This document shows positions 16,370-64,000 of a stretch of 64,000 nt of DNA, in pieces. Positions within the stretch are counted from its first letter, which is position 1. Every line of letters starts with the position of its first letter. The stretch is from Candidatus Poriferisodalis sp. GTDB lineage: Bacteria; Actinomycetota; Acidimicrobiia; Acidimicrobiales; Poriferisodalaceae. Both the position numbers and the translations under genes were made by a program. The notes below the pieces were generated by a model. The model saw only the letters and a list, made by a program, of their open reading frames with translations. It had not been told where the DNA came from and did no database searches. Location: NCBI RefSeq assembly GCF_965204125.1, contig NZ_OZ241968.1, positions 1,048,840 through 1,112,839 on the forward strand, given 5' to 3'.

Positions 16370-16439
16370 TCAGTTTTGCTGTACCGATCAGGCGGGCAAG
16401 CCGCCCGAGCGGTTTAGGTCAACTGTGCAGCTGACTCCT

Positions 16440-22938: not shown

Positions 22939-22961
22939 GTGTGTCTCACGCCATTCCTACA

Positions 22962-37700: not shown

Positions 37701-37732
37701 AAGAGCCCCGGGGCGGGTGCCCCGGGGCTCTT
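37701..37732 (-). terminator. Conserved hairpin terminator (copy T2) downstream of S2
   Basis: aagagccccgggg-cgggtg-ccccggggctctt. Conserved 3' UTR at 37733-37802. Confidence 0.8.
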
Positions 37733-37802
37733 TCGCTGTTGGTCTTTGCCGGTCAGGCGGGCGGGCCGCTTGGCCGGTTCAGGTCAACTGTGGGTCTGAC
37801 TC

Positions 37803-40700: not shown

Positions 40701-40720
40701 GGTTATGTTTCTCCTTGTTC
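40701..40720 (-). promoter_or_regulatory. Truncated leader of S2 (only the gaacaaggagaaacataacc part is shared with full leaders)
   Basis: Minus strand reads ccgttgcaca|gaacaaggagaaacataacc|TTG. Homology to the full leader begins exactly at gaacaaggag. Confidence 0.7.
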
Positions 40721-41088: not shown

Positions 41089-41379
41089 CTACGAGAAAAT
41101 GCCGAGCCCTACCACGACGCCGAGGATCGACACGCCGATTCCGGCCAGCCAGCGGAACTGGTGCCGCGCTTCCTTGCGGTCGGCCTCGCGGGCATCGACG
41201 AGCCGCTCGAACTTGGTATCGAGACGCTCGAACGCGGTATCGAGACGCGCGATGTCGCTCTTGGTGGCGAGATCGGGCAGCGGCACAGGGCTCAGACAGG
41301 ACATGACGTATTCGGCGAGCGACTCGTCGGCCTGCTCGCACCACCAAGCGTAGAGGCGGGAACGATCTTGTTCAGACAC
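41089..41379 (-). CDS. Small coiled-coil, C-terminally membrane-anchored protein (96 aa)
   Basis: GTG 41379 preceded by gaaaggaatccgct (SD). Sequence VSEQDRSRLYAWWCEQADESLAEYVMSCLSPVPLPDLATKSDIARLDTAFERLDTKFERLVDAREADRKEARHQFRWLAGIGVSILGVVVGLGIFS. Homologous relics lie at 63475-63890 and 61745-61840. Confidence 0.6.
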   Translation of the reverse strand: MSEQDRSRLYAWWCEQADESLAEYVMSCLSPVPLPDLATKSDIARLDTAFERLDTKFERLVDAREADRKEARHQFRWLAGIGVSILGVVVGLGIFS

Positions 41380-41513
41380 AGCGGATTCCTTTCTGCAGCG
41401 ATCCGCTGTGGACAGTAGGGAGCCTCTCTCAATTCGAAAAATGAATTTCATGTTGTTTTGTTGATTGCTGCAATTGGCGTCGGCTTGGCTGGCCGGCGTC
41501 GCCGTTGGCAGTC

Positions 41514-42839: not shown

Positions 42840-42859
42840 GAACAAGGAGAAAAGGAACC
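42840..42859 (+). promoter_or_regulatory. Truncated leader of S3 (gaacaaggagaaaaggaacc)
   Basis: Reads gcgatgcgag|gaacaaggagaaaaggaacc|TTG. Homology to the full leader starts at the same gaacaaggag as in S2. A candidate -35/-10 pair is TTGACC 42789-42794 and TCATAT 42813-42818 (weak). Confidence 0.6.
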
Positions 42860-45748: not shown

Positions 45749-45816
45749 GAGCTAGCTGCACAGTTGACCTAAACCGCTCGGGCGGCTTGCCCGCCTGATC
45801 GGAACAGCAAAACTGA

Positions 45817-45850
45817 GAAGAGCCCCGGGGCATCCGCCCCGGGGCTCTTC
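45817..45850 (+). terminator. Conserved hairpin terminator (copy T3) downstream of S3
   Basis: gaagagccccgggg-catccg-ccccggggctcttc. The 3' UTR at 45749-45816 is nearly identical to that of S1. Confidence 0.8.
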
Positions 45851-45917
45851 GCGTGTCCGCACGAGTTGTATTCGTTTCTGCTAGTTCGTACTACTAGAAC
45901 AACTAAGGTTCCTGTCG

Positions 45918-48900: not shown

Positions 48901-48947
48901 CACGGGTGCGGATAGCCCGCAGCAGCAGCGTCACCCCGCCCGACTAG
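45918..48947 (+). CDS. Large CWB2-anchored surface protein, putative S-layer-type paralog S4 (different upstream region)
   Basis: Signal peptide RGRRSLAVALATMLVASVLAVTAGTPAHAANT. By homology the start could be GTG 45972 (VTTRPRPRGRRS). GTG 45918 has an AAGG 11 nt upstream. CWB2 motifs GSDRYQTALRLAERF, AGDTRYDTSAAIASHL and GGDSAAATSVAIAETI. Tail NDFNYGSRVRIARSSSVTPPD. Confidence 0.85.
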   Translation: MPHHGGPNPLTSGRELRTVTTRPRPRGRRSLAVALATMLVASVLAVTAGTPAHAANTAGEYLTADGEREFAGSDRYQTALRLAERFADDRGGIGSVSNAFIASGETLVDAVSAAGLAGFMDAPVLLTRSDRLHSAVADFLDDYGIGTIHVLGGTAAVSDGVIDELKGLAGVGSVERIAGDTRYDTSAAIASHLSGESWCGTNENSAILANGADERLFDAVAIGPVANRLELPVLLTAGDELADAVLAYIESDDIEHVVMVGGEASVSAAVEQALRDAGVDTVERIGGDSAAATSVAIAETIGGDCADDLSPVSVDTVALVNQDSLADGISAVPVLADDTDQLGGGLVPMLAVGGTLPASVRDYLAATPEEDSAGNKVHLRVLAVGGTAAVSDSVMAAAVAAAGAADALTVTISASADKADAGLGDARGQNTVHLHFSDDISRADNANLRNKLEDILQINGVPADIASDAPGIEAPCDPDTVTVTLERNLKAGDTVSIVSGAVLVGADGDRRTVQPVSATVPAAPVDRQRPSLRIIAIVGDNIVWGLISDDTALSEAGLLAENLTNADGKPLFEQTSSSGTAGLFELHAEGIAFDTPGAQRTTARFRYFLQDDPATPDVNEGIVSANDRFRANRGAIVDAAGNESQVTTGVPVQPVSKLRVSSVLMSELSHTAQARALVPSAHRFETPPELRFVDPNIPSPSASDNPSNPAVWLQAKADGAAAGAYGNLWTVRADRSSSWDGSKDPEVEVLASVSARQVFVRVVNGEPRFSDVSAALEAHPVVSSLFNVIVDNLYVNNTDTCELANPKIQHQLLPATGDEAGADGDDVQALVGGVTKAGFRVNFNGWIESMNADQAARLLAALLDDTLARYKAAVPVQGDNSETDLDDLRAILGEFDPDGVTQGTPLALFVKVTGDGPRTVVEFKVETNHAVALPQPRDIVDIADGFDTDADGDPVDGDDQTDGVQRTDTGGRSVVDGYGDNHSDGTTDNDFNYGSRVRIARSSSVTPPD

Positions 48948-49366
48948 GCGCCGGCGTCGACCCATGGGTCGATCAGCCGGAGGTCGAGGCCTTCGAAGTG
49001 CGAGACGTTGCGCGTGGCCAAGGCCAGCCGTCGCACACCGGCAGTGGCTGCGATGAGCGCATCGCCCAAATCGAGGCTGCGGCCCGCACGCCGAGCCTGT
49101 ACCCGCAACTCGGCGGCGTGCTCTGCTTCGGCGGGGCCCACGGGCACCACCCGGCGCACCACCGAGGCGAGCTGGCGGACGGCACTGGCGATGGCATCGC
49201 GACGTCGGCCCGGAGCCATCAGCCCGATGCCGTACTCAAGCTCGTGCAGCACGATCGCAGACAGCCACAGGTTCGGTTCGCCCGACAGGAACGCCATGAC
49301 GTTGGCGTCGGGCTCTGGCCGAGCAGCCTCGGAGACGACGTTGGTGTCGAGCAGGATGCCGTTCAC
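48944..49366 (-). CDS. vapC: PIN-domain toxin VapC
   Basis: MNGILLDTNVVSEAARPEPDANVMAFL...LIAATAGVRRLALATRNVSHFEGL. Its stop codon overlaps the S4 stop codon (convergent overlap 48944-48947). Confidence 0.85.
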   Translation of the reverse strand: MNGILLDTNVVSEAARPEPDANVMAFLSGEPNLWLSAIVLHELEYGIGLMAPGRRRDAIASAVRQLASVVRRVVPVGPAEAEHAAELRVQARRAGRSLDLGDALIAATAGVRRLALATRNVSHFEGLDLRLIDPWVDAGA

Positions 49367-49704: not shown

Positions 49705-49775
49705 CCCAAACTAGTCCATATTGGACTATTTCCCATCACGCTGTGGCGCTGCCGCAGCAGCGTCGCACCGCCCTC

Positions 49776-50207
49776 CTAGGAGCCGGCGTCGACCCATGGG
49801 TTGATGACGTTCAGCCCGTCGAATCGGCTGAAGCCGCTGGCGTCGCGTGTCACCACGCTCATCGAGTGGACCAGGGCTGTGGCCGCGATGAGGGCGTCGC
49901 TGACTGGAGCTGGGTCGGGAACGTGCAAGGCTGCTGCGGTGCGGGCGACCTCGACGTCGACCGCCAGGATGCGGCCCTCGAACGCCGCATGAACGTCGTT
50001 GTCGAGCCATCGGCGCAGCACCATGCCCGATGAGCGATCGCGACGCTCGACCAGCTGCACGCCGATCTCAAGCTCCATGTCGGTCACTGCCGAGATGTAC
50101 GCCAGCGCCGGCTCGATCCGCGACGCCCAGCTCACAACCTGCTCGTCGGCCTTTCCGGATGGGGCACGGCGCAGCTCGGACACCACGTTGGTGTCGAGCA
50201 CGTACAT
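49776..50207 (-). CDS. vapC: PIN-domain toxin VapC (second copy)
   Basis: MYVLDTNVVSELRRAPSGKADEQVVSWA...LIAATALVHSMSVVTRDASGFSRF. ATG 50207 overlaps the antitoxin stop by 1 nt. Confidence 0.85.
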   Translation of the reverse strand: MYVLDTNVVSELRRAPSGKADEQVVSWASRIEPALAYISAVTDMELEIGVQLVERRDRSSGMVLRRWLDNDVHAAFEGRILAVDVEVARTAAALHVPDPAPVSDALIAATALVHSMSVVTRDASGFSRFDGLNVINPWVDAGS

Positions 50208-50449: not shown

Positions 50450-50574
50450 CTGCGTTCCCGCTCCAGTCGATGCCTTCATATGTAGCAATATTACTACTTC
50501 CAAGGGAGAAGCCCGCCACAGCTCGTTGCGCAGTGACGACAGGCGTGTGCGATCGGCACGCCCGAAGTGCTTCG

Positions 50575-50629
50575 TGAACGGCCGCTGAGAAGGCTGTCAG
50601 GGCTCGGAATCTCACGGCAAGGAGCCGAT
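50575..50629 (+). repeat. Degenerate, truncated surface-gene leader copy E'
   Basis: gtgaacggccgctgagaaggctgtcagggctcggaatctcacggcaaggagccga aligns with gaacggccgtctagcgagctgtcagggctcgagatcgcacggaaaggagccga of copy G, then diverges. Confidence 0.65.
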
Positions 50630-50740
50630 TGCGCCTACTAACCGAACCGTTCGACGACCCGAGGATAATCCAACGCCCTCGTTATCGGATCAGCCGTCTC
50701 TTCAGCCAGCGGCAGCAAACGCAGGCTGGACATCAGCAGA

Positions 50741-51349
50741 TCATTGGTCGCGCATCAGTCTCGGGATGAGTGAATCCATCTGGAATGAGGCCCAGCAGGC
50801 CTGTGCAAGCTCGTTCCCGTGGTTGCGCCACGTTGCGTTCACAACCTTGAGTCCCTTTTCTTGGATTCGCTCGACGGCAGGCACGAAGTCCGAGTCTCCC
50901 GAGACGAGCACCGCTACCTGAAGCGCGCCTTCCCAGGCCAACGACAGAAGATCCGTCGCGATTGCGGCGTCGACGCCCTTCTCGGGAGCTCGTCGGAACG
51001 GCGTCCCGCACGTGGGGCACGCGCTGGTCTGGGTCTTGCACGAGTTGCACCAGATGCCGCCCGTTCGCACGCGACGCTCACGCAGCTTGACGCGAAAGCT
51101 GGGTTGGCGGTCAATGAAGCTGGTGAGCCACTGGCTGAGGTTGCCTTCACTCGACGAGACGCTCGCGTAGACGAGTGTCTCGTCGAGCGCAAGGGAGTCA
51201 GAGATTCCAGCTACTTCGAGACTCTTGCCAGCCTCTTGCACCAAGACGCGTGGAAGAGCCTTCCAGTCACAGTTGGCCCGACTTGAGCGCTCGTTCCAAT
51301 TGAGCTGAAAGTTCCAGTAATCGACGAACAGACGAGTTCCGAGTCGCAT
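50741..51349 (-). CDS. NYN/LabA-like (PIN-like) domain protein with an inserted Cys4 zinc ribbon
   Basis: Likely start ATG 51349 (MRLGTRLFVDYWNF). CNSCKTQTSACPTCGTPF. GVDAAIATDLLSLAWEGALQVAVLVSGDSDFVPAVERIQEKGLKV. Confidence 0.75.
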   Translation of the reverse strand: MRLGTRLFVDYWNFQLNWNERSSRANCDWKALPRVLVQEAGKSLEVAGISDSLALDETLVYASVSSSEGNLSQWLTSFIDRQPSFRVKLRERRVRTGGIWCNSCKTQTSACPTCGTPFRRAPEKGVDAAIATDLLSLAWEGALQVAVLVSGDSDFVPAVERIQEKGLKVVNATWRNHGNELAQACWASFQMDSLIPRLMRDQ

Positions 51350-51636
51350 CTTGGCTCCCAGGGGTAGGCGCGGGGACGTCAGGAGAACGGCCCCTTGAAG
51401 CACTAGCGCTCAGGCTGCCCCGTGGCCAAACGAAATACGGGGAGCGGCAATTGCCGCTCCCCGGGGGTTTCATACAGGCGGCGCAGCGATGGCCGACCGC
51501 CTGGGGATCTAATGGCTGCTAACCCTACCATTGCCCGCCGCATGGTCGACAGCAGATTTGAGCATCCGGCTAGGTCCCGACGTGCGAGGAATCGAGTGGA
51601 GCGGGGGCTAGCGACGGGCGATGCGGGCCAGAAGGC

Positions 51637-51825
51637 GACGATCGTAACGGTCAGCCCCGTCGAGCAACGCTGCGGCCGAGGCCGACCGCGGCGGCCCAGG
51701 CACCGCACATACAGACCCATCTGGGGACTGTCAGCACCCGAGATCGCACGGAAAGGAGCCGAGCAAGGAGAGAAGGAACCGTGGCTGCTCGGGCGAAGCG
51801 GCGGCGCGAGCCTTGTGCGTGAGCT
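51637..51825 (+). repeat. Orphan leader copy F (long form with ~95-nt upstream extension; inverted twin of copy B)
   Basis: gacgatcgtaacggtcagccccgtcgagcaacgctgcggccgaggccgaccgcggcggcccaggcaccgcacatacagacccatctggggactgtcagcacccgagatcgcacggaaaggagccgagcaaggagagaaggaaccGTGgctgctcgggcgaagcggcggcgcgag. Confidence 0.85.
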
Positions 51826-51955
51826 GGGTCAACCTGGGTTGCCCTCCATCTGACGTTGTGTGCATACTGTTGGCGGTCGGCGGCTAGCCCATAGGCCCCC
51901 GCCGAAAGTACGCCCCGGATCGGCTGCCGGCTGGCAGCTCCGGGGCCTCTGCGTG

Positions 51956-52405
51956 TCAGGACGCGATGTCAGGCCACCGTGTCACCGCTCGAACCCGGCC
52001 GGCGATCAAGGCGAACGCAGTCCTGTTCACCCCACACAGGTGATCGGTACGAGCTCCTGCCAGCAAGTCAGGCAAGCTCAGCATGATTTCGCTCTTGTTG
52101 TCATGTCGCAGTCGAACCGCGCTGATCAGTCCTTGACCCCGCAACCTCCTGAGAACCTGGTGGTCCTTCTGATCTAGCTGGCCAGGACCTAACTGCAGTC
52201 TCGAACGGCTCTCGATCACAATCTCGGCCACGCCGAACTCATTCGAGAGCGACGCCAAGGCTCGCTGCAGCAGTCTCGCCCGGACGTGATGTTCAGAATG
52301 GTGCTGCCGATGAACTGCTTGGGACGTCTCCACGAGCTTGGCATCGTCACCGTGAGATCGTGTCGCACCCGGTGCAAGAGACTCGTCCAGTTGGGTCTCG
52401 AGCAT
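51956..52405 (-). CDS. Hypothetical protein (149 aa), second gene of a two-gene module
   Basis: ATG 52405 preceded by ctAGGAGccgcagcta (SD, 9-nt spacing). The sequence SEIMLSLPDLLAGA faintly recalls the C-terminal motif of DUF3800-type proteins; this is unconfirmed. Confidence 0.5.
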   Translation of the reverse strand: MLETQLDESLAPGATRSHGDDAKLVETSQAVHRQHHSEHHVRARLLQRALASLSNEFGVAEIVIESRSRLQLGPGQLDQKDHQVLRRLRGQGLISAVRLRHDNKSEIMLSLPDLLAGARTDHLCGVNRTAFALIAGRVRAVTRWPDIAS

Positions 52406-52425
52406 TAGCTGCGGCTCCTAGAGAA

Positions 52426-52659
52426 TCACGGCAGGCTCCTGGTACAGCGATTCTCGAACGACTCAGGATCGACCTGTGGCGAGAAGATCCCGACGGGTCC
52501 AATCGCGGTCCTCGCAGCATGCAAGGCCAACAGCTCAGGCAGCCTTGCATCATCGGCTTGATCGGCAAAACCAATTTGACTGAATGTCGCCGAGAGCCGG
52601 ATTTGCCGTGGAACTGCCGCAGAAGCACGGCCTAGACGCAAGGTCTGCGCAACCGACAC
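52426..52659 (-). CDS. Hypothetical small protein (77 aa), first gene of the two-gene module
   Basis: GTG start. It ends 20 nt before the downstream gene's ATG. No recognised motif. Confidence 0.4.
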   Translation of the reverse strand: MSVAQTLRLGRASAAVPRQIRLSATFSQIGFADQADDARLPELLALHAARTAIGPVGIFSPQVDPESFENRCTRSLP

Positions 52660-52675
52660 GATCCGCGCTGCGCAT

Positions 52676-52815
52676 GAACGGCCGTCTAGCGAGCTGTCAG
52701 GGCTCGAGATCGCACGGAAAGGAGCCGAACAAGGAGAAACAGGATCGTGTCTGTTCGTTCGAACCCACGAGGCGGGTGGTTCTTCGCGCCCGCTTCGATC
52801 GTTGGGTTGTATCTG
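52676..52815 (+). repeat. Orphan leader copy G with a decayed 5' coding remnant
   Basis: gaacggccgtctagcgagctgtcagggctcgagatcgcacggaaaggagccgaacaaggagaaacaggatcGTGtctgttcgttcgaacccacgaggcgggtggttcttcgcg. The remnant aligns with ttgactacctactcgaagcggcgaggcaggcgttccctcgc. Confidence 0.85.
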
Positions 52816-52827
52816 GGGCGCCGCGAG

Positions 52828-53580
52828 CTAGGGCCTGCGGGTGAGGAGTCGGTAGGTCGCCAGTCCGCGGTCGGCTTCAGTCTGGTCGAGCGTGTCCCAC
52901 GCGGGGTGTTGTCGATCGTTCATTTCTGATCGTCTGGCGAGCCGCTGGCGGTCTTTGCGGTCCAGTTCGTCGGCCGTCGCCAGTGGGTGTTCGACCAGGC
53001 TGAGCAGCAGCGCGAGATCTGAGCGCTGGGCGAGTGGAACGTCGTCATCGTCGACCGCGCATGCCTTGCAGATGATGGCCCCCAGCAGGGACGGCCGAGG
53101 CACGAGCCCCACCTGTCCTTCAAACGTGACCGGCACCATTTCGGTTCGGTTGAGTGCCTGAGTGCCGCCGGTCACGGCCAGCGTCCGCCCTGGTGGAGTG
53201 GTTGTGAGGTCGGTGCGTTCGCCGAGCCCTTCGGGTGCCAGGACATCCACGCTGACGCCGTCGCGCCCGTAGCGATGAGCGATTCCGTCAGGCGAATGCC
53301 CGGCTAGTTCGTAGCCGCTTTCTTCGAGAGCGGCTACGAACTCTCGCACTGCCCCGGAGGCGACGCGAGCGTTGACAACTATGTCGAGGTCTGTTGAGAC
53401 TCGCGAGGGTTGTGCACCGTGCTCTAGGGCGTGCAGCAGCACCATCTGTCCGCCGATGAGCGTCCAGGTGGTCTGCTGAACTTCGGCCAGCTCGATGAGT
53501 GCTGGCCACAGCTGGTCATCGATGCCGGGCAGGACGGGCAGCGCGACGGGCTCCCGGTCGATGATCTTGCGGCCGTTCAT
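52828..53580 (-). CDS. Nucleotidyltransferase-fold protein (AbiEii-like toxin candidate)
   Basis: ATG 53580 (MNGRKIID) overlaps the upstream stop (ATGA). NTase signature TLIGGQMVLLHALEHGAQPSRVSTDLDIVV. The longer ORF extending to 54132 is Arg/Pro-rich and overlaps the partner gene. Confidence 0.6.
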   Translation of the reverse strand: MNGRKIIDREPVALPVLPGIDDQLWPALIELAEVQQTTWTLIGGQMVLLHALEHGAQPSRVSTDLDIVVNARVASGAVREFVAALEESGYELAGHSPDGIAHRYGRDGVSVDVLAPEGLGERTDLTTTPPGRTLAVTGGTQALNRTEMVPVTFEGQVGLVPRPSLLGAIICKACAVDDDDVPLAQRSDLALLLSLVEHPLATADELDRKDRQRLARRSEMNDRQHPAWDTLDQTEADRGLATYRLLTRRP

Positions 53581-54242
53581 GCTCTGGCCAGCAGCTCGCG
53601 TGCGGCGCGCTGGGTGCGTTGGTCGTGTGAGTCCAGCAGATCGACGGCCACGACGGGCGCTGAAGCCACGCGCTGGCCAGCCTCGAAGGGCCAGTCGTGG
53701 TCGCTGACGACTCGCAGTCGGACGTTGGGCCTGTCTGAGTGGGCGTCGAGGGCGAAGCGCTCGGCCAGTTCGGCGACCCGCGATTGGGGCACGTATGCCT
53801 CGGACTGGTCGCTCACCACCAAGTCGACGCGGTGATCGCCGAGCGCGCTGATGCCGCTGGCGACCACGCTCGGGTGCGAGAGCATCTCTGAGTGCACTGC
53901 TGGGTGCGCGTAGAACCAGCGGCTTCGGGCGCGGCTCGACAGGCGCCTGGCGAGCGGCTCGAGCCCGACTTGCAGCCGCTGCTTCGCCCGCGACCGGTCG
54001 ACCGGCGAGCCCCGCACGGCGTCCCCGTTCGCCAGCGCCAGCACGTTCCAGGCCGACGACGGGCTCCACGGCCGGCCGGCCTCGGGCCGGGCGGACGCAA
54101 ATCGTTGGACATCGGCACGGTCGAGCACCCATGATCGCCCGATCCGGCGGCCACTCAGCCGACCTGCGGCGACCAGCTGGTGGACGCGACGAGGGCTGAT
54201 GCTCAATTGCTTGGCGGCGTCCGCTATCCCGACCGGCTCCAT
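53577..54242 (-). CDS. HTH + AbiEi-like antitoxin/transcriptional regulator candidate
   Basis: N-terminal HTH MEPVGIADAAKQLSISPRRVHQLVAAGRLSGRRIGRSWVLDRADVQRF. Translationally coupled to the NTase gene. Confidence 0.6.
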   Translation of the reverse strand: MEPVGIADAAKQLSISPRRVHQLVAAGRLSGRRIGRSWVLDRADVQRFASARPEAGRPWSPSSAWNVLALANGDAVRGSPVDRSRAKQRLQVGLEPLARRLSSRARSRWFYAHPAVHSEMLSHPSVVASGISALGDHRVDLVVSDQSEAYVPQSRVAELAERFALDAHSDRPNVRLRVVSDHDWPFEAGQRVASAPVVAVDLLDSHDQRTQRAARELLARA

Positions 54243-54596
54243 ATCAATACTATACTTATTAGCGAAGTAATCTGTAATTCAGACTGCAGACCGAATTCGT
54301 AGTTGAAATCACTACGAGCCCTACGCACAAAGCAATACGCAAGAAATCAACAAGTCCGAAGCTCAAACACCGCGGACCGCAAGCCTTCTGAGAGGCTTCT
54401 GCGGTACGCGCGACACGTCCGGGATGTGCGTTTGCGACACGGCCCGGTGACGCACTGCACAACACACTGAGAATCTCCGGGAACCGCCACGGTCCGACCT
54501 TGAGAGGGCCACCTCGCGTCTGTGCGGGTCGGCTCTAGGCCGGTTTGCCAGAGGGACGGAGCGCCTCGGCGAGAGCGGGGCCGCGTCGCTACGACC

Positions 54597-54858
54597 ATGA
54601 GAACCGGCGCAGAGACGTTGGCGCTGCTGCGGGAGCACAAGCGCGAGCTCGTCGACCGGTTCGGCGTCGCTGGTCTTGCGCTGTTCGGCTCGAGCGTGCG
54701 TGACGAGGTTCGCAGCGAGCTTCGCCCCTATGTGGAGGCCGAGGCCGTCGATGTCTGATCCCCGGCTGCGTCGTTGGGATCACTACGTGCGCGACGACAT
54801 CCCGGCGCTAGTGCAATTGCTGCGAGAACTGCTCGAAGAGGCAGAAGCCCAGGACTGA
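54597..54858 (+). pseudogene. Relic of an MNT (nucleotidyltransferase) - HEPN toxin-antitoxin pair with an internal deletion
   Basis: MRTGAETLALLREHKRELVDRFGVAGLALFGSSVRDE is a typical MNT N-terminus, but the DxD catalytic segment is missing. Frame-shifted ORF 54676..54858 ends WDHYVRDDIPALVQLLRELL, which resembles a HEPN/DUF86 C-terminus. Confidence 0.5.
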
Positions 54859-54973
54859 GCTCAGCCGCAACCGACCGGTCGAGCGGCGTTTGTCGTCGCG
54901 ATTCCGGTCTCGCGTAGACGAATCCTGAGGTTCGCACAGCAACGCCGCACTGGGCCGTATCCGGGCGGCACGT

Positions 54974-55095
54974 GAACGGCTGTCAGGGCTCGAGTTCGCA
55001 CGGAAAGGAGCCGAACAAGGAGAAACAGGATCGTGTCTGTTCGTTCGAACCAGACGGGGTGGGCGGTTCGTCGAGCCGCCGCGGGCTCTCGGTTT
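54974..55095 (+). repeat. Orphan leader copy H with a decayed 5' coding remnant
   Basis: gaacggctgtcagggctcgagttcgcacggaaaggagccgaacaaggagaaacaggatcGTGtctgttcgttcgaaccagacggggtgggcggttcgtcgag. Almost identical to copy G through gttcgaacc. Confidence 0.85.
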
Positions 55096-55101
55096 TGGGT
55101 T

Positions 55102-55674
55102 CTATTCCAGCGTCAGGGTCGGGAGCACTCGGATGCCGAATCGCTGTCCTTGTCGGACGAGGCTGTTGGGGATGGGTTGGGGGTCGTGCCAGTTCAGCGG
55201 CGAGGGCTGTCGGGCGAACACGGCGACGGCTTCGAGCTGCATCTGGGGGTCGTGTCTGACCCGGTAGACGATGCCGTCGTGTCCGGCGTCGTGCAATCGG
55301 CCGCTGAGCTGCTGTGACGGTGTGTAGTCGGTGCCGGTCGAATGCGCTGCGGTCACGCCGAAGCGGCCGAGGACGGAGCGGTGCGACAGATCGGCCAGTC
55401 GCAGGTCACGGGCACCGGTCGCCTCGCTGATCCTGCGGCTGTCGATCTCGGCGGTCCCCAGCGTGCCGATGCGCCCGAACACCTCGATGTATGCAGCGAT
55501 CGGTTCCGGCGCCAGGTAGCACACGCCGTATCGCTGGTGGCCAGGCGGGGCCCCGAATCTGTGCCGGTCGGTCGTGTCGTAGTGGTCGGCGGCACGGTCG
55601 GCACGGTGGATGCGGTGAAGCGAGGACCCTGCCCGCAGCGTTCGTGTGGGGAACTGCCGCCAGTCGGCGGTCAT
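55102..55674 (-). CDS. RES-domain toxin (NAD+-targeting family)
   Basis: ATG 55674 (MTADWRQFPTRTLRAGSSLHRIH). RFGAPPGHQRYGVCYLAPEPIAAYIE, DYTPSQQLSGRL and DGIVYRVRHD. Its start overlaps the antitoxin stop (55671-55674). Confidence 0.8.
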   Translation of the reverse strand: MTADWRQFPTRTLRAGSSLHRIHRADRAADHYDTTDRHRFGAPPGHQRYGVCYLAPEPIAAYIEVFGRIGTLGTAEIDSRRISEATGARDLRLADLSHRSVLGRFGVTAAHSTGTDYTPSQQLSGRLHDAGHDGIVYRVRHDPQMQLEAVAVFARQPSPLNWHDPQPIPNSLVRQGQRFGIRVLPTLTLE

Positions 55675-56270
55675 TGGGCGAGGCGAAGCGCTGCCTGCTC
55701 GGCCGAGCGGACGACTGCCCGGTTGTCGCGGCCCTGGGCGATCCACGCCGCCGGCGTGCTGCCGTCGAGGTCGTCGTGCTGGGCGGTGGTGGCCCACGCG
55801 GCGACGATCTGCGGGTCGGCGGCATCGAGATGGTCCCTGAACGCGGCGACGACCTCGGCGACCATCGGGCGAACCGATCGCGAGCCCGAGTCGAACTGCC
55901 ACGCTGGGAACCAGGTGGTGCTGCGCCCGCGCAGCCCGATCAGCGTTCCGCTGCGCTGCCGCTTGGACAGCGCCTGGCGGGAGACCCCGAGCATCGCGCA
56001 CACCTGGGCGGTGTCATAGCGCTCCCCCACAGCGGCTGACCACGCCGCTGAGGCAATGACCGACTCTGCCGCGGAGCCGCCGATGCGCTGCGCGGCGGTC
56101 TCGTCGAGATCCCCGAGGCTCTCCATGGAGGACCGCAGCTCCCGCAGGAAGCTCTCGGCCACGATGACCGCAGGCGACCCCGATGCCCCTTCGCCCGCGT
56201 TGGAGCGCAAGAACCGATCCAGAGCCTCGCGCAGCGAGCGCTCGCCGGTCGCCTCTGTCGCCATCGCCAT
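55671..56270 (-). CDS. Xre/MbcA/ParS-like antitoxin (HTH + DUF2384-type C-terminal domain)
   Basis: YDTAQVCAMLGVSRQALSKRQRSGTLIGL (HTH). C-terminal AAWATTAQHDDLDGSTPAAWIAQGRDNRAVVRSAEQAA, typical of RES-cognate antitoxins. Confidence 0.8.
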   Translation of the reverse strand: MAMATEATGERSLREALDRFLRSNAGEGASGSPAVIVAESFLRELRSSMESLGDLDETAAQRIGGSAAESVIASAAWSAAVGERYDTAQVCAMLGVSRQALSKRQRSGTLIGLRGRSTTWFPAWQFDSGSRSVRPMVAEVVAAFRDHLDAADPQIVAAWATTAQHDDLDGSTPAAWIAQGRDNRAVVRSAEQAALRLAQ

Positions 56271-56361
56271 GACCGCAGCCTACGCCGCGGCCCGTCAACC
56301 CGTCAACCCGTCAACCAACCGTCTCGGGCTGCTCAGCCGGCCGCTGACAAGCGCCCCTCTT

Positions 56362-56418
56362 GGGGCTGTCAAGACCCGAAATCACACGGAAAGGAGCCGA
56401 ACAAGGAGAAACATAACC
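56362..56418 (+). promoter_or_regulatory. Full surface-gene 5' leader (copy I) attached to S5
   Basis: ggggctgtcaagacccgaaatcacacGGAAAGGAGccgaacAAGGAGAaacataacc followed by TTG. Identical to copy A from cgaaatcacacgg onward. Confidence 0.7.
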
Positions 56419-59226
56419 TTGACTACCTACTCGAAGCGGCGAGGCAGGCGTTCCCTCGCTGCGATCCTGGCGGCGATGCTCATTGCATCGGTGCTCGCCG
56501 TGGTCGCCGGCTCACCGGCGCACGCGGCCAACACGGCCGGCGAAGTACTCGTCGACCATGACAACGACGCGAAGACTCCGAAGGTGCGCCAGTTCGCCGG
56601 CGACACCCGCTATGAGACTGCTCTGGCACTCGCGAAGGACTTTGCTGAGAACAACGGCAGCATCGGCGGAGTTCCCGTCGCTTTCGTCGCGTCGGGTGAG
56701 TCGCTGGTCGACGCCGTGACTGTCTCAGCTCTTGCAGGCGACCTGAACGCACCGGTGCTGCTCACCCCTGGCGGGGAACTGCACCGAGGCGTCGGCACAT
56801 TCCTCGAGGACTACGGCATTGGAACGATCCATGTGCTCGGCGGCACCGCCGCTGTCTCCGATGCGGTTGTCACCGCCATCGAGGGCCTGGTCCACGAGCC
56901 GACCGTGACGCGCATCGCTGGCGACGACCGGTATGCGACTGCTGCTGCGATCGCTTCGGCTCTGAATGGTTCTCGGTCGTGGTGCGATTCCGACAATGAG
57001 GCTGCGGTGCTGGTCAATGGTGGCAGCACGTCGCTGGCCGGTGCGACAGTCATCGGGCCGGTTGCGAACCGTCTCGCGGTGCCAGTGTTGCTTACCGCCG
57101 CTGACGAACTGCCTGACGCGACCCGCGACTGGATCGACGAGAACAGCATCGAGCATGTTGTGATTGTCGGCTCGACCGCCGACGTGTCCGCGGGCATCGA
57201 GAAGATGCTGGCGGCTGACGGTGTCGATGTCGTTGAGCGCATCGCTGGCGACAACGCCGGTGAGTTGTCGGTGAACGTCGCCAAGACCGTCACTGGCGAT
57301 TGCGCTGACGATCTGGCGCCGGTTGCGTTTGATCGGGCTGCGTTGGTGAACGGCTGGGGACGCGATGTCGCCCCTGACGCCATCACCGCTGCGCCGGTTC
57401 TGTCGGACGGCAATCTCGTGCCGATCCTGCTGGTCGGTGACACGCTGCCCGCATCGGTGCGTGATTACCTCGCCGCGACGCCGTCGCTGCGTAATGGCAA
57501 CAAGGTGCATTATCAGCTGCTCGCTATCGGCGGCACCGCTGCGGTGTCGGAGGCTGTGATGGCAGCGGCGATTGATGCTGCTGCTTCGGCTGATGCGCTC
57601 ACTGTGTCGATTACCAACAACGTTGATATGCCGACGCATGATGACTTCGGAAAGCCGCCCGTTGTCGATGCGACAAGCTTCACGCTGCGGTTCAACGACC
57701 GTGTCAACAGCACCGGCCTGCAAGCCAAGCTCAGTGACATTGTCGAGATCAACGGCGCTCCAGCTGTCTTCACCGTTGCTGACGCCGATACTGACGGCAC
57801 TGTGGAAGCCACAGAGTCGAGTTATCGCTGCGATTCCGCGATCGTGCGCATCACCGGTGTGCCGGCTCTCAAAGCTGGCGATGTCATCTCGGTCGCCGGT
57901 TCGACGCTGACGGTTGGTGCTGGCGATGACCAGCGCAATGTCGTGTCGACTTCGGTGACGGTGCCCGCGAACCCAGTCGACAAGATTGGCCCGAAGATCA
58001 CCATCGTCGGTGTTGAGGACCAGAACAGCGGCGACGTTGGCACCGTCTGGGTCACGGTTGCTTCCGACGATCTCGGCACGGGCACCGACACAGGGTTGAC
58101 GATCGACAACGCCGCGACCACCAATATCGCCAACGATGGTGAAGTGCGTGCAACCCGTGGCGGCAAGTCGCTCGTGCTCGCAGCCATCACTGATGTGTCG
58201 TTGGCAGCAGACGGCACGGCACGCTTCGAGTTGACGCTCGGCACTCAGACTGACACCACCCTCGTCGCTGAGTGGAAGGCCGGGGACCAGATCACGTTCA
58301 TGAGAGGCGCGCTTGTCGACGCTGAAGGCAACGACAGCCCACGTGCACATGGCAGGGTTGCCGCAGCCAAAGTTTCCCCGAAGCCGACAGCGATCCGCGT
58401 TAGCGACGAGAACCACACCAACCAAGCAACTGCAACGGTTCCGGTCGCTATCGCAGGAACAGGCGGAGTGGCGGACATCACGCTGACCGCTAAGAAGGAC
58501 GGCGCAGCGGCAGGTGTGCGCGGCAACGGCTGGACATTCCGGCTGCGCAACGCCAGCACCGTGCCCGCTGGTGACGCCGACATCGCTGTGTCAGTCGATA
58601 CCAAGGGCCGACGTGTAGTCGCGACAGTCCGTCGTGGCGCACCGACCTACGGGGATCTCAAAACGGCGCTCGACGGTCACAGGGCATTCGCAGCGCTGTT
58701 CGACGTTGCTATCGCCAAGACGGCCGACAATGCGGCAGCCGGCACCTGCGGGGCTCCCAAGAGCACCACGAAGCTCACTCTCACGGGAGACTCGCCACCG
58801 GCTGGTCTGGACACTCCCGTTGCCTTCGCTGAGGGCCGTACCACTATGGCTGTGGAAGTCATCTTCAACGGCTACCTCCAGACGGTGACCGACAACGCGC
58901 TGCGTGACGACGTGTTCGCGGACGCTGTCGCAGAGCGCGGCGTCGATCTGGCCAACCTGGCGACCGATAGCAGTGTGACACAGGTGTTCGTGGCACCATC
59001 TGACAGGGTCCGTTACAACATCGTCGCCACTGCGGGCGATGCCGGTCTGCTGTTGCAGCCCGGGCCCGGCAAGGACCGTGTGGTTGTCGCTGCTGGAGAT
59101 GTCGCCACCGGCTACGCCGACGACGGTCTCACCGGCACCGACGACACCGATGGTGACGAGACCACCAACGCCAAGAACGATGGTCTGTGGATGCACCGCA
59201 GCAGCTCTGTCAAGGCTCCCGCCTAG
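56419..59226 (+). CDS. Large CWB2-anchored surface protein, putative S-layer-type paralog S5 (subfamily with S2)
   Basis: TTG 56419 (LTTYSKRRGRRSLAAILAAMLIASVLAVVAGSPAHAANT). CWB2 motifs GDTRYETALALAKDF, AGDDRYATAAAIASAL and AGDNAGELSVNVAKTV. The first ~75 nt are identical to S1. The track ORF start at 56056 overlaps the antitoxin gene and is rejected. Confidence 0.85.
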   Translation: MTTYSKRRGRRSLAAILAAMLIASVLAVVAGSPAHAANTAGEVLVDHDNDAKTPKVRQFAGDTRYETALALAKDFAENNGSIGGVPVAFVASGESLVDAVTVSALAGDLNAPVLLTPGGELHRGVGTFLEDYGIGTIHVLGGTAAVSDAVVTAIEGLVHEPTVTRIAGDDRYATAAAIASALNGSRSWCDSDNEAAVLVNGGSTSLAGATVIGPVANRLAVPVLLTAADELPDATRDWIDENSIEHVVIVGSTADVSAGIEKMLAADGVDVVERIAGDNAGELSVNVAKTVTGDCADDLAPVAFDRAALVNGWGRDVAPDAITAAPVLSDGNLVPILLVGDTLPASVRDYLAATPSLRNGNKVHYQLLAIGGTAAVSEAVMAAAIDAAASADALTVSITNNVDMPTHDDFGKPPVVDATSFTLRFNDRVNSTGLQAKLSDIVEINGAPAVFTVADADTDGTVEATESSYRCDSAIVRITGVPALKAGDVISVAGSTLTVGAGDDQRNVVSTSVTVPANPVDKIGPKITIVGVEDQNSGDVGTVWVTVASDDLGTGTDTGLTIDNAATTNIANDGEVRATRGGKSLVLAAITDVSLAADGTARFELTLGTQTDTTLVAEWKAGDQITFMRGALVDAEGNDSPRAHGRVAAAKVSPKPTAIRVSDENHTNQATATVPVAIAGTGGVADITLTAKKDGAAAGVRGNGWTFRLRNASTVPAGDADIAVSVDTKGRRVVATVRRGAPTYGDLKTALDGHRAFAALFDVAIAKTADNAAAGTCGAPKSTTKLTLTGDSPPAGLDTPVAFAEGRTTMAVEVIFNGYLQTVTDNALRDDVFADAVAERGVDLANLATDSSVTQVFVAPSDRVRYNIVATAGDAGLLLQPGPGKDRVVVAAGDVATGYADDGLTGTDDTDGDETTNAKNDGLWMHRSSSVKAPA

Positions 59227-61931: not shown

Positions 61932-62180
61932 ATGTGGCAATTGCAGGACGCCAAGAACCGGTTCAGCGCCGTTGTCGAGGCGGCGCTGGGCGGCGAGCCG
62001 CAGCATGTGACGCGGCGAGGCCAGCCCGTGGTCGTGGTGGTGGCGGTGGATGAGTTCGAGCGGCTCTGCCGGCTCGACAGTGCTGCCGCGCCCACGTTCG
62101 GCCGCCTGCTGGCCGCCATGCCGACCGACGGCGGCGAATTCGAGCGGCTCGATGTGTCACCCAGGGACATCGAGCTGTGA
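61932..62180 (+). CDS. Phd/YefM-type antitoxin
   Basis: MWQLQDAKNRFSAVVEAALGGEPQHVTRRGQPVVVVVAVDEFERL. The ORF is open from GTG 61890. The direct repeat ctagattgt at 61867-61875 and 61880-61888 lies upstream. Confidence 0.75.
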   Translation: MWQLQDAKNRFSAVVEAALGGEPQHVTRRGQPVVVVVAVDEFERLCRLDSAAAPTFGRLLAAMPTDGGEFERLDVSPRDIEL

Positions 62181-62590
62181 GCTTGCTGCTCGACACCGAT
62201 GTTCTCTCGGCGCTGCGCCGTCGCCACCGGAACCCGTCGGTCGTCGGGTGGCTGGAGAGCCAACGCACAGCCGACCTGCATCTCAGCGTGGTGACCATCG
62301 GCGAGATCGAGCGCGGCATTGCCCGCCAGCGCGATCGCGACCCCGCATTCGCCCTGGAACTCGCCGACTGGCTCGACAAGGTGCTCACCTGGTACGGCGA
62401 CCGCGTGCTCCCCGTCGATACCGGCACGGCTCGGCGGTGGGGCCGCCTCGTTGAGCTGCTCGGGCATGCGAATGCCGACCTCTTGATCGCCGCCACGGCA
62501 CTCGAGCACGGGCTCACCGTGGTCACCCGCAACACCCGCGACTTCGAGCCAACCGGAGCAAAGGTGCTCAACCCCTTCGGTGACGCATAG
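62177..62590 (+). CDS. vapC: PIN-domain toxin VapC (FitB-like)
   Basis: MSLLLDTDVLSALRRRHRNPSVVGWL...LLIAATALEHGLTVVTRNTRDFEPTGAKVLNPF. GTG start overlapping the antitoxin stop. Confidence 0.85.
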   Translation: MSLLLDTDVLSALRRRHRNPSVVGWLESQRTADLHLSVVTIGEIERGIARQRDRDPAFALELADWLDKVLTWYGDRVLPVDTGTARRWGRLVELLGHANADLLIAATALEHGLTVVTRNTRDFEPTGAKVLNPFGDA

Positions 62591-63474: not shown

Positions 63475-63890
63475 TCAGCCGCGCAGCCACTCGGTGATGG
63501 CAACGACTGCCGCAAGGGCACAGAGCATCTCGATCGGCACCCAGAACGCCAGCCGGCTGATCTGCTTGCTGAGGGAGGCAATGTCCTCGCGGCGTTCCTT
63601 GCGGTCGGCCTCGCATTGGGCGGCGTGTGCTCGGCGGTCGGCCTCGCATTGGGCGGCGTGTGCTCGGCGGTCGGCCTCGCATTGGGCGGCCAGTTCTTGG
63701 AGGTCGGCCTGGCGCTGGTTGGACATCATGAGCGAGAACTTCGAGAACTCTGCTGACAGGTGCCCTTGGCGACCAGGTCCGACAGCGGTGCCGGAGCGAG
63801 GCACGACATCACGAACTCCGCTGTCTGTTCGTCGGTCTGCTCACGCAGCAGATTGTAGAAGTTGGTGCGTTGCTGTTCCGGAGTCCCGGA
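63475..63890 (-). pseudogene. Frameshifted, start-less homolog of the small coiled-coil tail-anchored protein at 41089..41379
   Basis: Track ORF 63475..63804 contains GHLSAEFSKFSLMM...CEADRKERREDIASLSKQISRLAFWVPIEMLCALAAVVAITEWL. Bases 63805-63880 in another frame read PEQQRTNFYNLLREQTDEQTAEFVMSCLAPAPLSDLVAKG, which aligns with SEQDRSRLYAWWCEQADESLAEYVMSCLSPVPLPDLATKS. The frames differ by one missing C in aagggc(c)acctg. Confidence 0.6.
63601..63690 (-). repeat. Perfect 33-bp tandem repeat, about 2.7 copies (gcggtcggcctcgcattgggcggcgtgtgctcg)
   Basis: Units at 63601-63633 and 63634-63666, with a partial unit at 63667-63690. It encodes AAQCEADRRAH repeats. Confidence 0.9.
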
Positions 63891-63910
63891 AGTTGACGAC
63901 CGCAGACGCG

Positions 63911-63942
63911 AAGAGCCCCGGGGCCGAAACCCCGGGGCTCCT
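63911..63942 (-). terminator. Conserved hairpin terminator (copy T6) with 3' UTR of a further surface-gene paralog lying beyond the right edge
   Basis: aagagccccgggg-ccgaaa-ccccggggctcctt followed (63943-64000) by cgttgttggtctttgccgatcaggcgggcaatcccccgatcagttcaggtcaactgt. This matches the S2 3' UTR at 37733-37800. Confidence 0.7.
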
Positions 63943-64000
63943 TCGTTGTTGGTCTTTGCCGATCAGGCGGGCAATCCCCCGATCAGTTCAGGTCAACTGT

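Follow-up and report, generated by a model that had tools for sequence, protein, structure and literature searches.

Site-specific inversion of variable surface-protein genes has been described in the Mycoplasma agalactiae Vpma, M. bovis Vsp and M. pulmonis Vsa systems (Xer1, Mbr, HvsR), where the members of a multigene family are highly conserved in their 5′ untranslated region and signal peptide and are served by an in-locus tyrosine recombinase, with sites in the 5′ UTR just before the start codon and inverted blocks between them (PMC2268961). As far as genome comparison alone tells, the locus described here shares with these systems a surface-protein family, an in-locus tyrosine recombinase, 5′ sites and inverted blocks. 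It differs in its host, a Ca. Poriferisodalis-like acidimicrobial sponge symbiont (Actinomycetota), and in its family, multigene CWB2 cell-wall-anchored surface proteins rather than lipoproteins. Further differences are a P4/CP4-57-type integrase with an arm-binding domain that lies inside a central, putatively invertible segment, a core that overlaps the ribosome-binding site, and many gene-less sites interleaved with TA/defence operons.

Several S-layer homologues of Campylobacter fetus sap have a conserved 5′ region, opposite copies of which flank an invertible segment whose inversion brings different genes to the promoter. This inversion is RecA-dependent, with conserved regions of ~600 bp and no dedicated recombinase in the segment. 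Our locus likewise has a conserved 5′ region across surface-gene homologues in oppositely oriented copies, but its repeats are 145 nt long at 84 % identity, several comparisons narrow the exchange point to ~12 nt, and the locus encodes an integrase. The R64 shufflon (Rci) also combines one tyrosine recombinase, multiple inverted sites and a surface-protein gene, for which it makes alternative constant/variable fusions. The shufflon swaps 3′ coding segments of one gene, whereas here it is whole genes that appear to change their upstream control region, over distances of tens of kilobases.

Sedentary chromosomal integrons such as the Vibrio superintegron contain TA modules with their own promoters that are thought to penalise excision or deletion, a published example of TA cassettes that make it costly to excise parts of an array bounded by repeats (PMC13108822), as well as gene-less cassettes with promoter activity (PMC11014356). 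Like the superintegron, our locus has short direct repeats separating small modules near a tyrosine recombinase; unlike integrons, it has no IntI-type integrase, folded attC sites or attI/Pc platform, its repeats are copies of a gene leader and 5′ end, and its modules are not conserved from repeat to repeat. Tandem islands at tRNA genes offer a further parallel, with direct repeats duplicating the end of the target gene and an intact gene at one end of the array. Here, however, no tRNA occurs in the window (the whole 64-kb stretch of DNA analysed), the modules have no integrase of their own, and the genome has many copies of the 5′ end that serves as target.

We favour, at a probability of roughly 55 %, a reading in which the ~70-nt leader would be both the common 5′ control region of the CWB2 family and a recombination site for its genes, shuffled by the integrase, with TA operons lodged between gene-less copies.

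The integrase segment and the leader copies

The surface genes and the integrase segment are arranged as follows.

16440-19394, minus strand: S1, CWB2 gene
37803-40700, minus strand: S2, CWB2 gene
40710-40719, minus strand: core AACAAGGAGA where end B of the integrase segment meets S2
41092-41382, minus strand: small membrane-anchored ORF downstream of the integrase, position conserved in relatives
41514-42713, minus strand: P4/CP4-57-type tyrosine integrase (Arm-DNA-bind_3, Phage_int_M and Phage_integrase domains)
42841-42850, plus strand: core AACAAGGAGA where end A of the integrase segment meets S3
42860-45748, plus strand: S3, CWB2 gene
56419-59226, plus strand: S5, CWB2 surface protein of 935 aa with three CWB2 domains and a TTG start at 56419

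The integrase, which the original prediction does not mention, has intact catalytic residues (R, K, HxxR, H and Y) and lies between the divergent S2 and S3 genes, 8-14 kb from the plus-strand array described below. Homologues that are 73-98 % identical occupy the same position in 10/10 loci retrieved (L015-L024). The 2.1-kb segment is bounded by the 145-nt inverted repeats (84 % identity, 2101 nt apart), which start exactly at AACAAGGAGA, a sequence that overlaps the ribosome-binding site; S2 and S3 retain only the 3′ half of the leader, from AACAAGGAGA onward. There is no obvious dyad symmetry, of the kind that tyrosine recombinases normally bind, around the 10-12-nt core, which counts against the reading favoured above.

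The 25-nt core CACGGAAAGGAGCCGAACAAGGAGA occurs seven times at up to three mismatches (0 in 100 shuffles), and the upstream part of the leader, CTGTCAGGGCTCGAGATCGCACGG, six times (0 in shuffles). Positioned with a profile of the leader, the copies are:

19401-19469, minus strand: functional leader of S1, gene-proximal end of the mirror array
25796-25950, minus strand: J, orphan leader (profile 25796-25854) with the upstream extension common to F
27007-27190, minus strand: K, orphan leader (profile 27007-27075) with a long upstream region
50571-50628, plus strand: E′, truncated orphan leader, 3′ end at GGAGCCGA
51637-51822, plus strand: F, extension, leader (profile 51717-51772) and relic
52673-52827, plus strand: G, full orphan leader (profile 52673-52740, core AACAAGGAGA at 52728-52737) and relic of ~80 nt
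54965-55101, plus strand: H, full orphan leader (profile 54965-55026, core 55014-55023) and relic
56348-56412, plus strand: I, functional leader of S5 (core 56400-56409)

These coordinates (50571-56412 on the plus strand) agree with the original prediction of five plus-strand leader copies around four minus-strand modules, ending at S5. A mirror array on the minus strand (19.4-27.1 kb) holds three further copies, and its modules lie on the plus strand. All orphans retain a recognisable relic of surface-gene coding sequence. The G relic extends as far as the convergent gene's stop codon, and the H relic contains a hairpin and T-run at 55073-55088. The variant junction said to be shared by G and H is present in both as aacaggatcGTGtctgttcgttcgaacc. 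F carries the core variant AGCAAGGAGA at 51762-51771 and an S3-type relic (aaaggaacc type, GTG at 51783), a gene type that differs from the other relics, and its upstream extension (51637-51727), followed by the leader at 51728-51772, is the J extension duplicated. The stretch just 3′ of E′ (50629-50694) is homologous to that behind an E-type orphan and hairpin in L005, and E′ is a deletion derivative of the orphan type that L005 and L010 keep intact. Positions 56377-56480 form an exact 104-nt tract with the leader and 5′ coding sequence of S1 (19333-19436).

The leader motif was found only in Acidimicrobiia/Ca. Poriferisodalis genomes. Judged by this distribution, the repeats are specific to the CWB2 loci of one lineage and are not the genome-wide REP/MITE element that the original prediction had named as a check.

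Each orphan might instead be a working promoter/leader that controls the convergent toxin gene through a short or antisense transcript, an idea compatible with the other explanations. The orphans include complete leaders and face toxin-gene 3′ ends, and the core is conserved in an orphan setting in L022. The promoter-like region upstream of K, with four CCGACA/TCGACA boxes, drives an intact gene in L003. We nevertheless consider this role very improbable. The hairpin and T-run before the module at H and the strong hairpin of the E-type orphans of L005 and L010 make strong antisense read-through unlikely at those copies, which opposes the leader-driven antisense transcription proposed earlier. 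Neither an RNA structure nor an Rfam family accounts for the conservation of the leader, no small ORF is conserved, and no sigma-70-like promoter turned up at the leaders in a simple scan.

Reshuffling at the core between genomes

End A and end B sequences adjoin AACAAGGAGA in every genome compared. End A carries an S3-type start (aaaggaacc...cgaacgaag) in the window, L017, L018, L020 and L021; in L015/L016, L019 and L004 this start belongs to end B. In the window the full-length S3 orthologue adjoins end A, and in L019 and L021 it adjoins end B; the homology between L019 and the S3 of the window begins exactly at the core. Orthologue groups of other surface genes are found on end A, on end B or behind a full leader, depending on the genome. 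L018 and L019, which come from one sample, show opposite arrangements despite an identical integrase and 99.8 % identity over a shared 3.6-kb flank. Since the same orthologue can follow either integrase end or a full leader, always joined at the core, the upstream and downstream halves have been reshuffled there many times.

The orphan copies follow the same pattern. The upstream half of K is joined to the K relic in the window, to a different relic in L009 and to a gene in L003; that of G is joined to the G relic in the window and, in L020, to the relic seen at L009 K. The MNT/H upstream half precedes the H relic and RES in the window, the G relic in L008 and an E type in L005. The flanks of orphan copies thus differ among genomes with breakpoints inside the repeat, as the original prediction had anticipated. 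Leader variants are homogenised within genomes, which, like the 104-nt tract of S1 and S5, fits recombination at the leader. In L022, an exact 24-nt core stands beside a module orthologous to that at 52828-54242 of the window, although the flanking DNA has diverged and the rest of the leader is lost. All of these rearrangements are read from comparisons between genomes, in which old fixed events and an active switch look alike.

The arrays could alternatively be tandem CWB2 paralogues with deleted bodies, to which TA operons came independently and in which the integrase plays no part; RecA-dependent gene conversion with functional copies would be all that keeps the leaders in place and similar to one another. 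This explanation is consistent with the coding relic kept by every orphan, with the leader upstream half, which evolves in concert within genomes, and with the 104-nt tract common to S1 and S5. The gene body and its 5′ signature (first 40-130 nt) are likewise found in different combinations, which indicates that RecA-type recombination or gene conversion operates too and might explain everything, and sap inversion can be RecA-dependent. However, the swap of end A and end B before the same gene needs a crossover within ~12 nt, less than RecA-type recombination requires. The integrase, its position and its catalytic residues are kept across many genomes, and gene conversion would not yield the exact core of L022 without the remaining leader. 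We therefore regard conversion and decay on their own as unlikely. The exchanges of leaders, genes and orphans at a core overlapping the ribosome-binding site suggest that the leader most likely acts as a Vpma/Vsp-type recombination site.

Orphan lineages and the modules lodged between them

Identities to I (leader/relic) are 85/44 % for H, 87/62 % for G and 87/52 % for F; they form no gradient, contrary to the proposed rise of decay with distance from S5. G is closest to J of the other array (94/72 %), and it groups with H, J and K in one clade across both arrays. Other genomes contain orthologues of these four, with flanks that match at 95-97 % identity in close relatives, and one such orthologue occurs where the integrase is only 78 % identical. 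Within the window, the orphans read gagatcgcac and the two intact genes gaaatcacac, so that there has been no recent exchange between orphans and genes here, a point against the preferred reading.

The modules of the plus-strand array are as follows.

50741-51403, minus strand: module 1, NYN-domain protein with a CxxC...CxxC motif (Pfam NYN 1.8e-12; PADLOC HEC-09/NYN)
51956-52405 and 52426-52659, minus strand: two-gene module (149 aa and 77 aa) with no family assignment
52828-54242, minus strand: two-gene module of a 251-aa and a 221-aa protein, the latter of HTH_17/excisionase type
54522-54858, plus strand: MNT/HEPN pair relic, on the same strand as the leaders
55097-56308, minus strand: RES-Xre operon (RES toxin 55102-55674, Xre-like antitoxin 55671-56270)

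The compact minus-strand modules are thereby confirmed, with two changes. The name AbiE-like given earlier to the pair at 52828-54242 finds no support: its 221-aa protein matches HTH_17/excisionase only, and for its 251-aa protein Pfam, NCBIfam and PADLOC gave no match. The predicted MNT/HEPN relic has an MNT match at 54522-54758, a weak one, and fuller versions lie upstream of orphan leaders in L005 and L008. The 149-aa protein is 93 % identical to a protein beside an F-type orphan in L009. RES-Xre is a discrete 1.2-kb mobile unit found in relatives beside secDF and other genes, and the operon of the window is 90 % identical to a leader-free copy downstream of ruvCAB-queA-tgt-yajC-secDF; for this one module, then, the check for modules elsewhere gave a copy outside the repeats.

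Two other kinds of site also have TA operons between duplicated gene ends. At one, a 55-nt stretch made up of the S4 3′ end and the last PIN1 codons (48919-48973) is duplicated at 49751-49805, before PIN2; at the other, in L025, the secF 3′ end is duplicated around RES-Xre, a duplication for which a leader-based mechanism does not account.

The original prediction was serial accretion, in which an in-trans recombinase inserted TA/defence cassettes successively beside S5, each event remaking a functional leader and leaving an older scar upstream, by the logic of integrons or tandem tRNA islands. Its attractions are that every module is bounded by direct repeats while S5 is intact, that an integrase and a narrow crossover core are present, and that all modules in both window arrays oppose their leaders. 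In L008, too, the H upstream half is joined to the downstream half of G, the junction expected of a circularised cassette, and TA operons lie between duplicated S4 and secF ends. The integrase, however, has a fixed, syntenic place between two CWB2 genes and is not of the IntI type. On its upstream side the core is accompanied by about 50-100 nt of repeat and on its downstream side by 60-80 nt, so the repeats are not simple hybrid att sites. Orphans group by type, across arrays and genomes, and not by distance from S5; they form old lineages common to genomes and both arrays rather than progressively younger scars. RES-Xre occurs without the repeat, and module boundaries coincide with operon ends and not with the core. 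Core-to-core units are not conserved among the related loci compared, against the proposed cassette-array layout. We consider accretion of this kind improbable; what stands of the attachment-like site is a recombination site overlapping the surface-gene 5′ end, without strictly serial insertion beside S5.

Under the preferred reading, of a leader that doubles as a recombination site, the integrase would catalyse exchanges, chiefly inversions between oppositely oriented sites, by the logic of the Mycoplasma Vpma/Vsp/Vsa systems. The four orphans at 50.6-55.1 kb would be gene-less sites, each a full leader with a 60-80-nt relic ending in a hairpin, and would represent old, maintained lineages rather than fresh scars. 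The arrays may have grown and been reshuffled through leader copies, by inversion between the mirror arrays, gene conversion, and Campbell-type insertion and excision, and not by ordered accretion beside S5. The TA/defence operons would be independently mobile units lodged at relic ends, where an orientation against the leader may avoid read-through from its promoter. Against this, the opposed orientation is not universal in relatives, NYN in L004 and AbiE in L015 lying on the leader strand. Because intervals bounded by direct repeats would be prone to deletion, those that persist in these surface-protein arrays may be the ones that carry an addictive module.

Leader copies and modules in the window

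The original prediction of an array of leader copies with minus-strand modules, ending at the CWB2 surface gene S5, describes a real feature. The core of the leader, CACGGAAAGGAGCCGAACAAGGAGA, matches the window seven times at up to three mismatches and never in 100 shuffled versions; for the upstream part, CTGTCAGGGCTCGAGATCGCACGG, the counts are six and none. A profile built on all leader copies gives the copy coordinates below. A mirror array adds three further copies, these in minus orientation and with plus-strand modules. Leader copies without a gene are termed orphans, the decayed surface-gene 5' coding sequence behind them relics, and the TA/defence operons between copies modules.

Leader copies and the modules between E' and I (local coordinates, strand, feature)
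19401-19469, minus: leader of the CWB2 gene S1 (16440-19394), mirror array
25796-25854, minus: orphan J, mirror array
27007-27075, minus: orphan K, mirror array
50571-50628, plus: leader copy E' (profile)
50741-51403, minus: NYN protein
51717-51772, plus: leader copy F (profile)
51956-52659, minus: gene pair without family match
52673-52740, plus: leader copy G (profile)
52828-54242, minus: 251-aa protein and 221-aa HTH_17 protein
54965-55026, plus: leader copy H (profile)
55102-56270, minus: RES and Xre-like gene
56348-56412, plus: leader copy I (profile); next come TTG at 56419 and a 935-aa protein that has three cell-wall-binding CWB2 domains

The RES-Xre operon is built as a type II TA module, in which the RES toxin gene (domain match 2e-13) is preceded by, and overlaps through ATGA, the gene of a Xre/MbcA/ParS-like antitoxin with weak Xre-MbcA-ParS_M and HTH matches. 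The 251-aa/221-aa pair had been called AbiE-like, a label we drop: it has no AbiEi or AbiEii (DUF1814) match in Pfam, NCBIfam or PADLOC, where HTH_17/excisionase is the sole match of the 221-aa protein. The plus-strand modules of the mirror array include a ThsA-like SIR2-STALD gene, a ShosA/DprA-like gene, a 2OG-Fe(II) oxygenase and a pair without a family name. The first three of these lie, with a possible phosphoribosyltransferase partner, in a defence cluster at 21496-25225 (plus) that is syntenic with the related loci L022 and L023.

Copies G and H have the variant start aacaggatcGTGtctgttcgttcgaacc in common, as first noted. Decay does not rise with distance from S5. Measured against I, the leader and relic of H are 85 and 44 % identical, those of G 87 and 62 % and those of F 87 and 52 %, and the nearest relative of G is J of the mirror array (94/72 %). 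The F relic is of a different gene type, and a 90-nt upstream extension is common to F and J. E' derives by deletion from an orphan type of which L005 and L010 have intact copies with a strong hairpin. A further terminator-like hairpin (51438-51463, minus), strong, with 11 pairs and then a T-run, stands upstream of the NYN gene, where there is no gene for it to terminate, and is probably the remnant of a module lost between E' and F.

Every module of both window arrays is oriented against its leader, for which the chance is ~1 in 128 if the ~7 operons are taken as independent. Relatives show exceptions, which makes selection against read-through as good an explanation as directional insertion.

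Taken whole, the window forms an island in which TA and defence genes are scattered among at least 11 CWB2 genes. Across the CWB2 family the leader and the first 40-130 nt of coding sequence are conserved; identity between gene bodies is 45-90 %. At the 3' side the genes also have a trailer in common, conserved and with a palindromic hairpin like that of a terminator (16328-16439, 37692-37821, 45722-45860 and 63902-64000), which gives the family portable homology at both ends. S1 (19333-19436) and S5 (56377-56480), 37 kb apart, have 104 nt of exact inverted identity covering leader and 5' coding sequence, and just past this tract they are ~61 % identical. The tract suggests recent gene conversion or reciprocal exchange. 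Other TA/defence-type genes lie between the surface genes at 14650-16216, 27285-28565, 35602-37299 and 9490-11349 (all minus) and at 62177-62590 (plus); the types among them are HipA with an HTH partner, a DUF4143 AAA ATPase, Schlafen/AlbA_2-HATPase_c_4, HNH and another PIN. Tandem coding repeats occur within large surface-protein genes (6245-6422, 7612-7926 and 29703-29982, with periods of 9, 9/27 and 21 nt), the 21-nt repeat encoding NDNPPP-like units, and some repeat-bearing surface genes combine CWB2 with RCC1, fn3 or periplasmic-binding domains.

The integrase segment and joins at the core

A 2.1-kb segment between the divergent genes S2 (minus) and S3 (plus) consists of an integrase gene and a small ORF, and is bordered by 145-nt inverted repeats of 84 % identity.

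40710-40719 and 42841-42850: AACAAGGAGA, where the family similarity of S2 and S3 begins
41092-41382, minus: small membrane-anchored ORF
41514-42713, minus: integrase with Arm-DNA-bind_3, Phage_int_M and Phage_integrase domains

All catalytic residues of the integrase are intact. Its sole NCBIfam match is PRK09692 (CP4-57-type integrase domain), and it has no match to IntI models. Homologues 73-98 % identical were collected from nine further contigs, giving ten loci (L015-L024); the integrase adjoins CWB2 genes in all ten and lies between a divergent pair wherever both flanks are present. The small ORF belongs to a family (~97 aa with a C-terminal membrane anchor, no family match) with a second member at ~63600-63880, found in relatives beside the integrase or beside CWB2 genes.

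S2 and S3 lack the upstream half of the leader, and their similarity to the family begins exactly at AACAAGGAGA. The two ends of the segment, end A (...gcgatgcgagg), abutting S3 in the window, and end B (...gggagcatctcccgtcgtacag), abutting S2, are recognisable and directly adjoin the core in every genome with a located core (L015-L023); no leader or core was detected in L024. The S3-type start (aaaggaaccTTGactatccgaacgaag) stands on end A in the window, L017, L018, L020 and L021, and on end B in L015/L016, L019 and L004. Between genomes, the one comparison in which this is seen, orthologous genes have any of three upstream partners at AACAAGGAGA, namely end A, end B or a full leader. The S3 orthologue (85-86 % identity over the full-length protein) follows end A in the window and end B in both L019 and L021, and DNA homology between L019 and S3 sets in with the first core base. 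A second orthologue group (83-88 %) follows end B in L017, end A in L020 and a full leader in both L015 and L004; for a third the partners are end A, end B and a full leader in L017, L018 and L001 respectively. Sequence just upstream of the core is end-specific and sequence just downstream is gene-specific, which places the exchange point within ~12 nt in these cases. If such exchange is ongoing, the switch between upstream and downstream halves is predicted to fall inside AACAAGGAGAAA.

One sample yielded both L018, a 7x contig, and L019, a circular chromosome at 229x. Their integrase proteins are the same and they have in common a 3.6-kb flank, 99.8 % identical yet attached to opposite ends. 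Outside this flank they are 89-92 % identical with many indels, and we do not count them as a clean single-inversion pair, given that differences elsewhere imply more than one event or assembly errors. For the same reason the pair is no more than a hint of population heterogeneity, and it is the only pointer to switching within a clone. Gene bodies also reassort with the 40-130 nt at the start of their coding sequence, and homologous recombination or gene conversion therefore acts in the conserved 5' region as well.

Orphans take part in these rearrangements, their upstream and downstream halves being combined differently from genome to genome. In the window the long K upstream region leads into the K relic, in L009 into a different relic and in L003 into an intact gene. 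The upstream region of G precedes the G relic in the window or, in L020, the different relic of L009. Similarly, what follows the MNT relic and H upstream region is the H relic with RES-Xre in the window, the G relic in L008 and an E-type orphan in L005. Breakpoints between related genomes accordingly fall within the repeat, as had been anticipated. The original prediction is thus partly right: a recombination site at the surface-gene 5' end finds support, an integrase is at hand in the locus, and breakpoints lie in the repeat. Ordered accretion at S5 does not stand.

Leader variants are homogenised within genomes: the window orphans carry gagatcgcac, three copies in L012 gaattc and most other copies gaaatcacac. 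At L022 identity of the integrase falls to 78 %, and the two proteins of the 251-aa/221-aa module have orthologues at 70 and 81 % amino-acid identity. Yet ~80 nt from the 3' end of that module an exact 24-nt GGAGCCGAACAAGGAGAAACAGGA persists, with the leader's upstream half lost and the flanks diverged. Exact conservation of these 24 nt amid diverged flanks argues that the core is maintained even where no gene is driven.

Antisense transcription into the modules from orphan leaders was raised in the original prediction. H has a hairpin with a T-run after its relic and E-type orphans have a strong hairpin, which makes long antisense transcripts unlikely at some copies. As to a single active promoter being moved between genes, as in Vpma/Vsp-type systems, several upstream halves look promoter-like, for example the boxes upstream of K. 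This region (27080-27190, minus) holds four CCGACA/TCGACA boxes in ~110 nt, conserved in L003 before an intact gene and in L009, and may be a regulator-binding or promoter region. A scan for the sigma-70-type promoter consensus, which is uninformative for this phylum, found none at the leaders or integrase ends.

An exact 24-mer scan of one genome per species (185,579 species) returned ten stretches, all in Acidimicrobiia MAGs or Candidatus Poriferisodalis chromosomes, with one match in each complete Poriferisodalis chromosome. Copies with enough flank lie beside a CWB2 gene or in a CWB2-rich locus. A protein 100 % identical to the window RES toxin is likewise assigned to Candidatus Poriferisodalis sp. 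A metagenome scan added four stretches, three of them related; the fourth, L014, is a chance match inside a coding repeat and not a leader copy. Phage origin of the leader is rejected on the absence of any copy among 2.9 million viral contigs. In related genomes the leader stands both ahead of intact CWB2 genes and as orphans, a distribution that excludes a generic REP/MITE element with many genome-wide copies and no gene link, in agreement with what was first proposed. A structured RNA or riboswitch is likewise rejected: no Rfam family matched anywhere in the window at gathering thresholds, and RNAalifold found no common fold among 32 distinct leader copies (consensus folding energy -1.1 kcal/mol). 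Conservation of the leader is at the level of primary sequence. The contigs of L003, L006, L008 and L009 end at or within a leader copy; the repeat breaks short-read assemblies, and such loci are probably under-reported.

Modules as independent units

The modules are not tied to the repeat in the way first supposed, since at least one of them occurs at unrelated loci. Copies of the RES-Xre operon (55097-56308) at 90-91 % identity stand in L025, L026 and L027, and their end points recur. Its left boundary is at 55097 in both L025 and L027, and there is no leader at either locus. The L025 copy lies downstream of ruvCAB-queA-tgt-yajC-secDF, and L027 has the same downstream flank; the L026 copy lies beside other genes and retains ~45 nt of relic. 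In L017 the PIN2/Phd2 pair, too, stands away from any leader. Core-to-core units conserved between genomes were looked for and none were found, and whole leader-to-leader cassettes are therefore rejected as conserved units.

At three unrelated types of site, TA operons lie between duplicated gene termini: the CWB2 leader, the S4/PIN end and the secF end. At the second, the last 28 nt of S4 and the last 27 nt of a convergent PIN gene are duplicated (48919-48973 and 49751-49805), which puts an S4 3' end in front of both PIN1/Phd1 and PIN2/Phd2, although identity between the two PIN proteins is only ~38 %. At the third, the secF 3' end (last ~25 nt) is duplicated around RES-Xre in L025 as a 38-nt direct repeat of 87 % identity (9323-9360 and 10610-10647), and no multi-copy homology accounts for the duplication there. 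Such duplicated gene ends would result if circles with a short stretch of homology integrated by single crossover.

The locus, likened at first to a cassette array, is not an integron, for it has no IntI and no attC. An attC site is an imperfect palindrome that folds as a single strand, whereas the repeats here are direct leader copies with a consensus folding energy of -1.1 kcal/mol; integron cassettes are mostly promoterless and on the same strand as Pc, whereas these modules are complete operons on the opposite strand. Tandem tRNA islands, the other model, carry an integrase per island beside an att site in a tRNA or tmRNA gene. The window has no tRNA or tmRNA and no module has a recombinase, which removes such a gene as the insertion target.

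A proposed shuffling of the surface-protein family and its consequences

Surface-antigen shuffling by a locus-encoded tyrosine recombinase is known from mycoplasmas, Bacteroides and a few pathogens. Full-text searches returned nothing of this kind for Actinomycetota, Acidimicrobiia, sponge symbionts, uncultured ones included, or CWB2 gene families. In the Vpma/Vsp/Vsa systems of Mycoplasma the 5' UTR is conserved, a tyrosine recombinase is encoded in the locus, and recombination sites lie immediately before the start codon (PMC2268961). The window is alike in its surface-gene family with conserved 5' UTR and signal-peptide region, in its locus-encoded tyrosine recombinase (41514-42713) and in a 5' UTR site with rearranged joins, the last known here from genome comparison only.

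The best-supported reading of these sequence comparisons is that the leader would serve a surface-protein family both as shared expression signal and as recombination site, the family being shuffled much as Vpma/Vsp/Vsa are. The integrase would catalyse the exchanges, switching would be ongoing, and some upstream halves would carry promoters. Orphans would be gene-less sites, with TA/defence operons filling the gaps between direct copies. A plausible reason for this filling comes from chromosomal integrons with TA cassettes, in which deletion is penalised where an addictive module is present (PMC13108822); by analogy, deletion between direct leader repeats would be penalised only with such a module between them.

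A more far-reaching version, which we regard as unlikely, is that a domesticated P4-type integrase works the RBS-overlapping core in two ways, by inversion between opposed leaders that switches the expressed CWB2 proteins and by excision and re-insertion of leader-bounded TA/defence modules between direct copies, making an integron-like capture platform on a gene's own leader in Actinomycetota. Promoter-bearing orphan leaders, once moved, might also phase-vary convergent transcription into defence operons.

If confirmed, shuffling of the CWB2 family at the leader would add to recombinase biology a compact RBS-overlapping core and a P4-type integrase acting as an invertase. It would also bear on how TA operons move, a question made testable by the duplicated termini at three kinds of site. 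The 64 kb of the window are packed with defence systems besides surface genes, and the finding, if confirmed, would bear on how an obligate symbiont varies the envelope that faces host phagocytes and phages.
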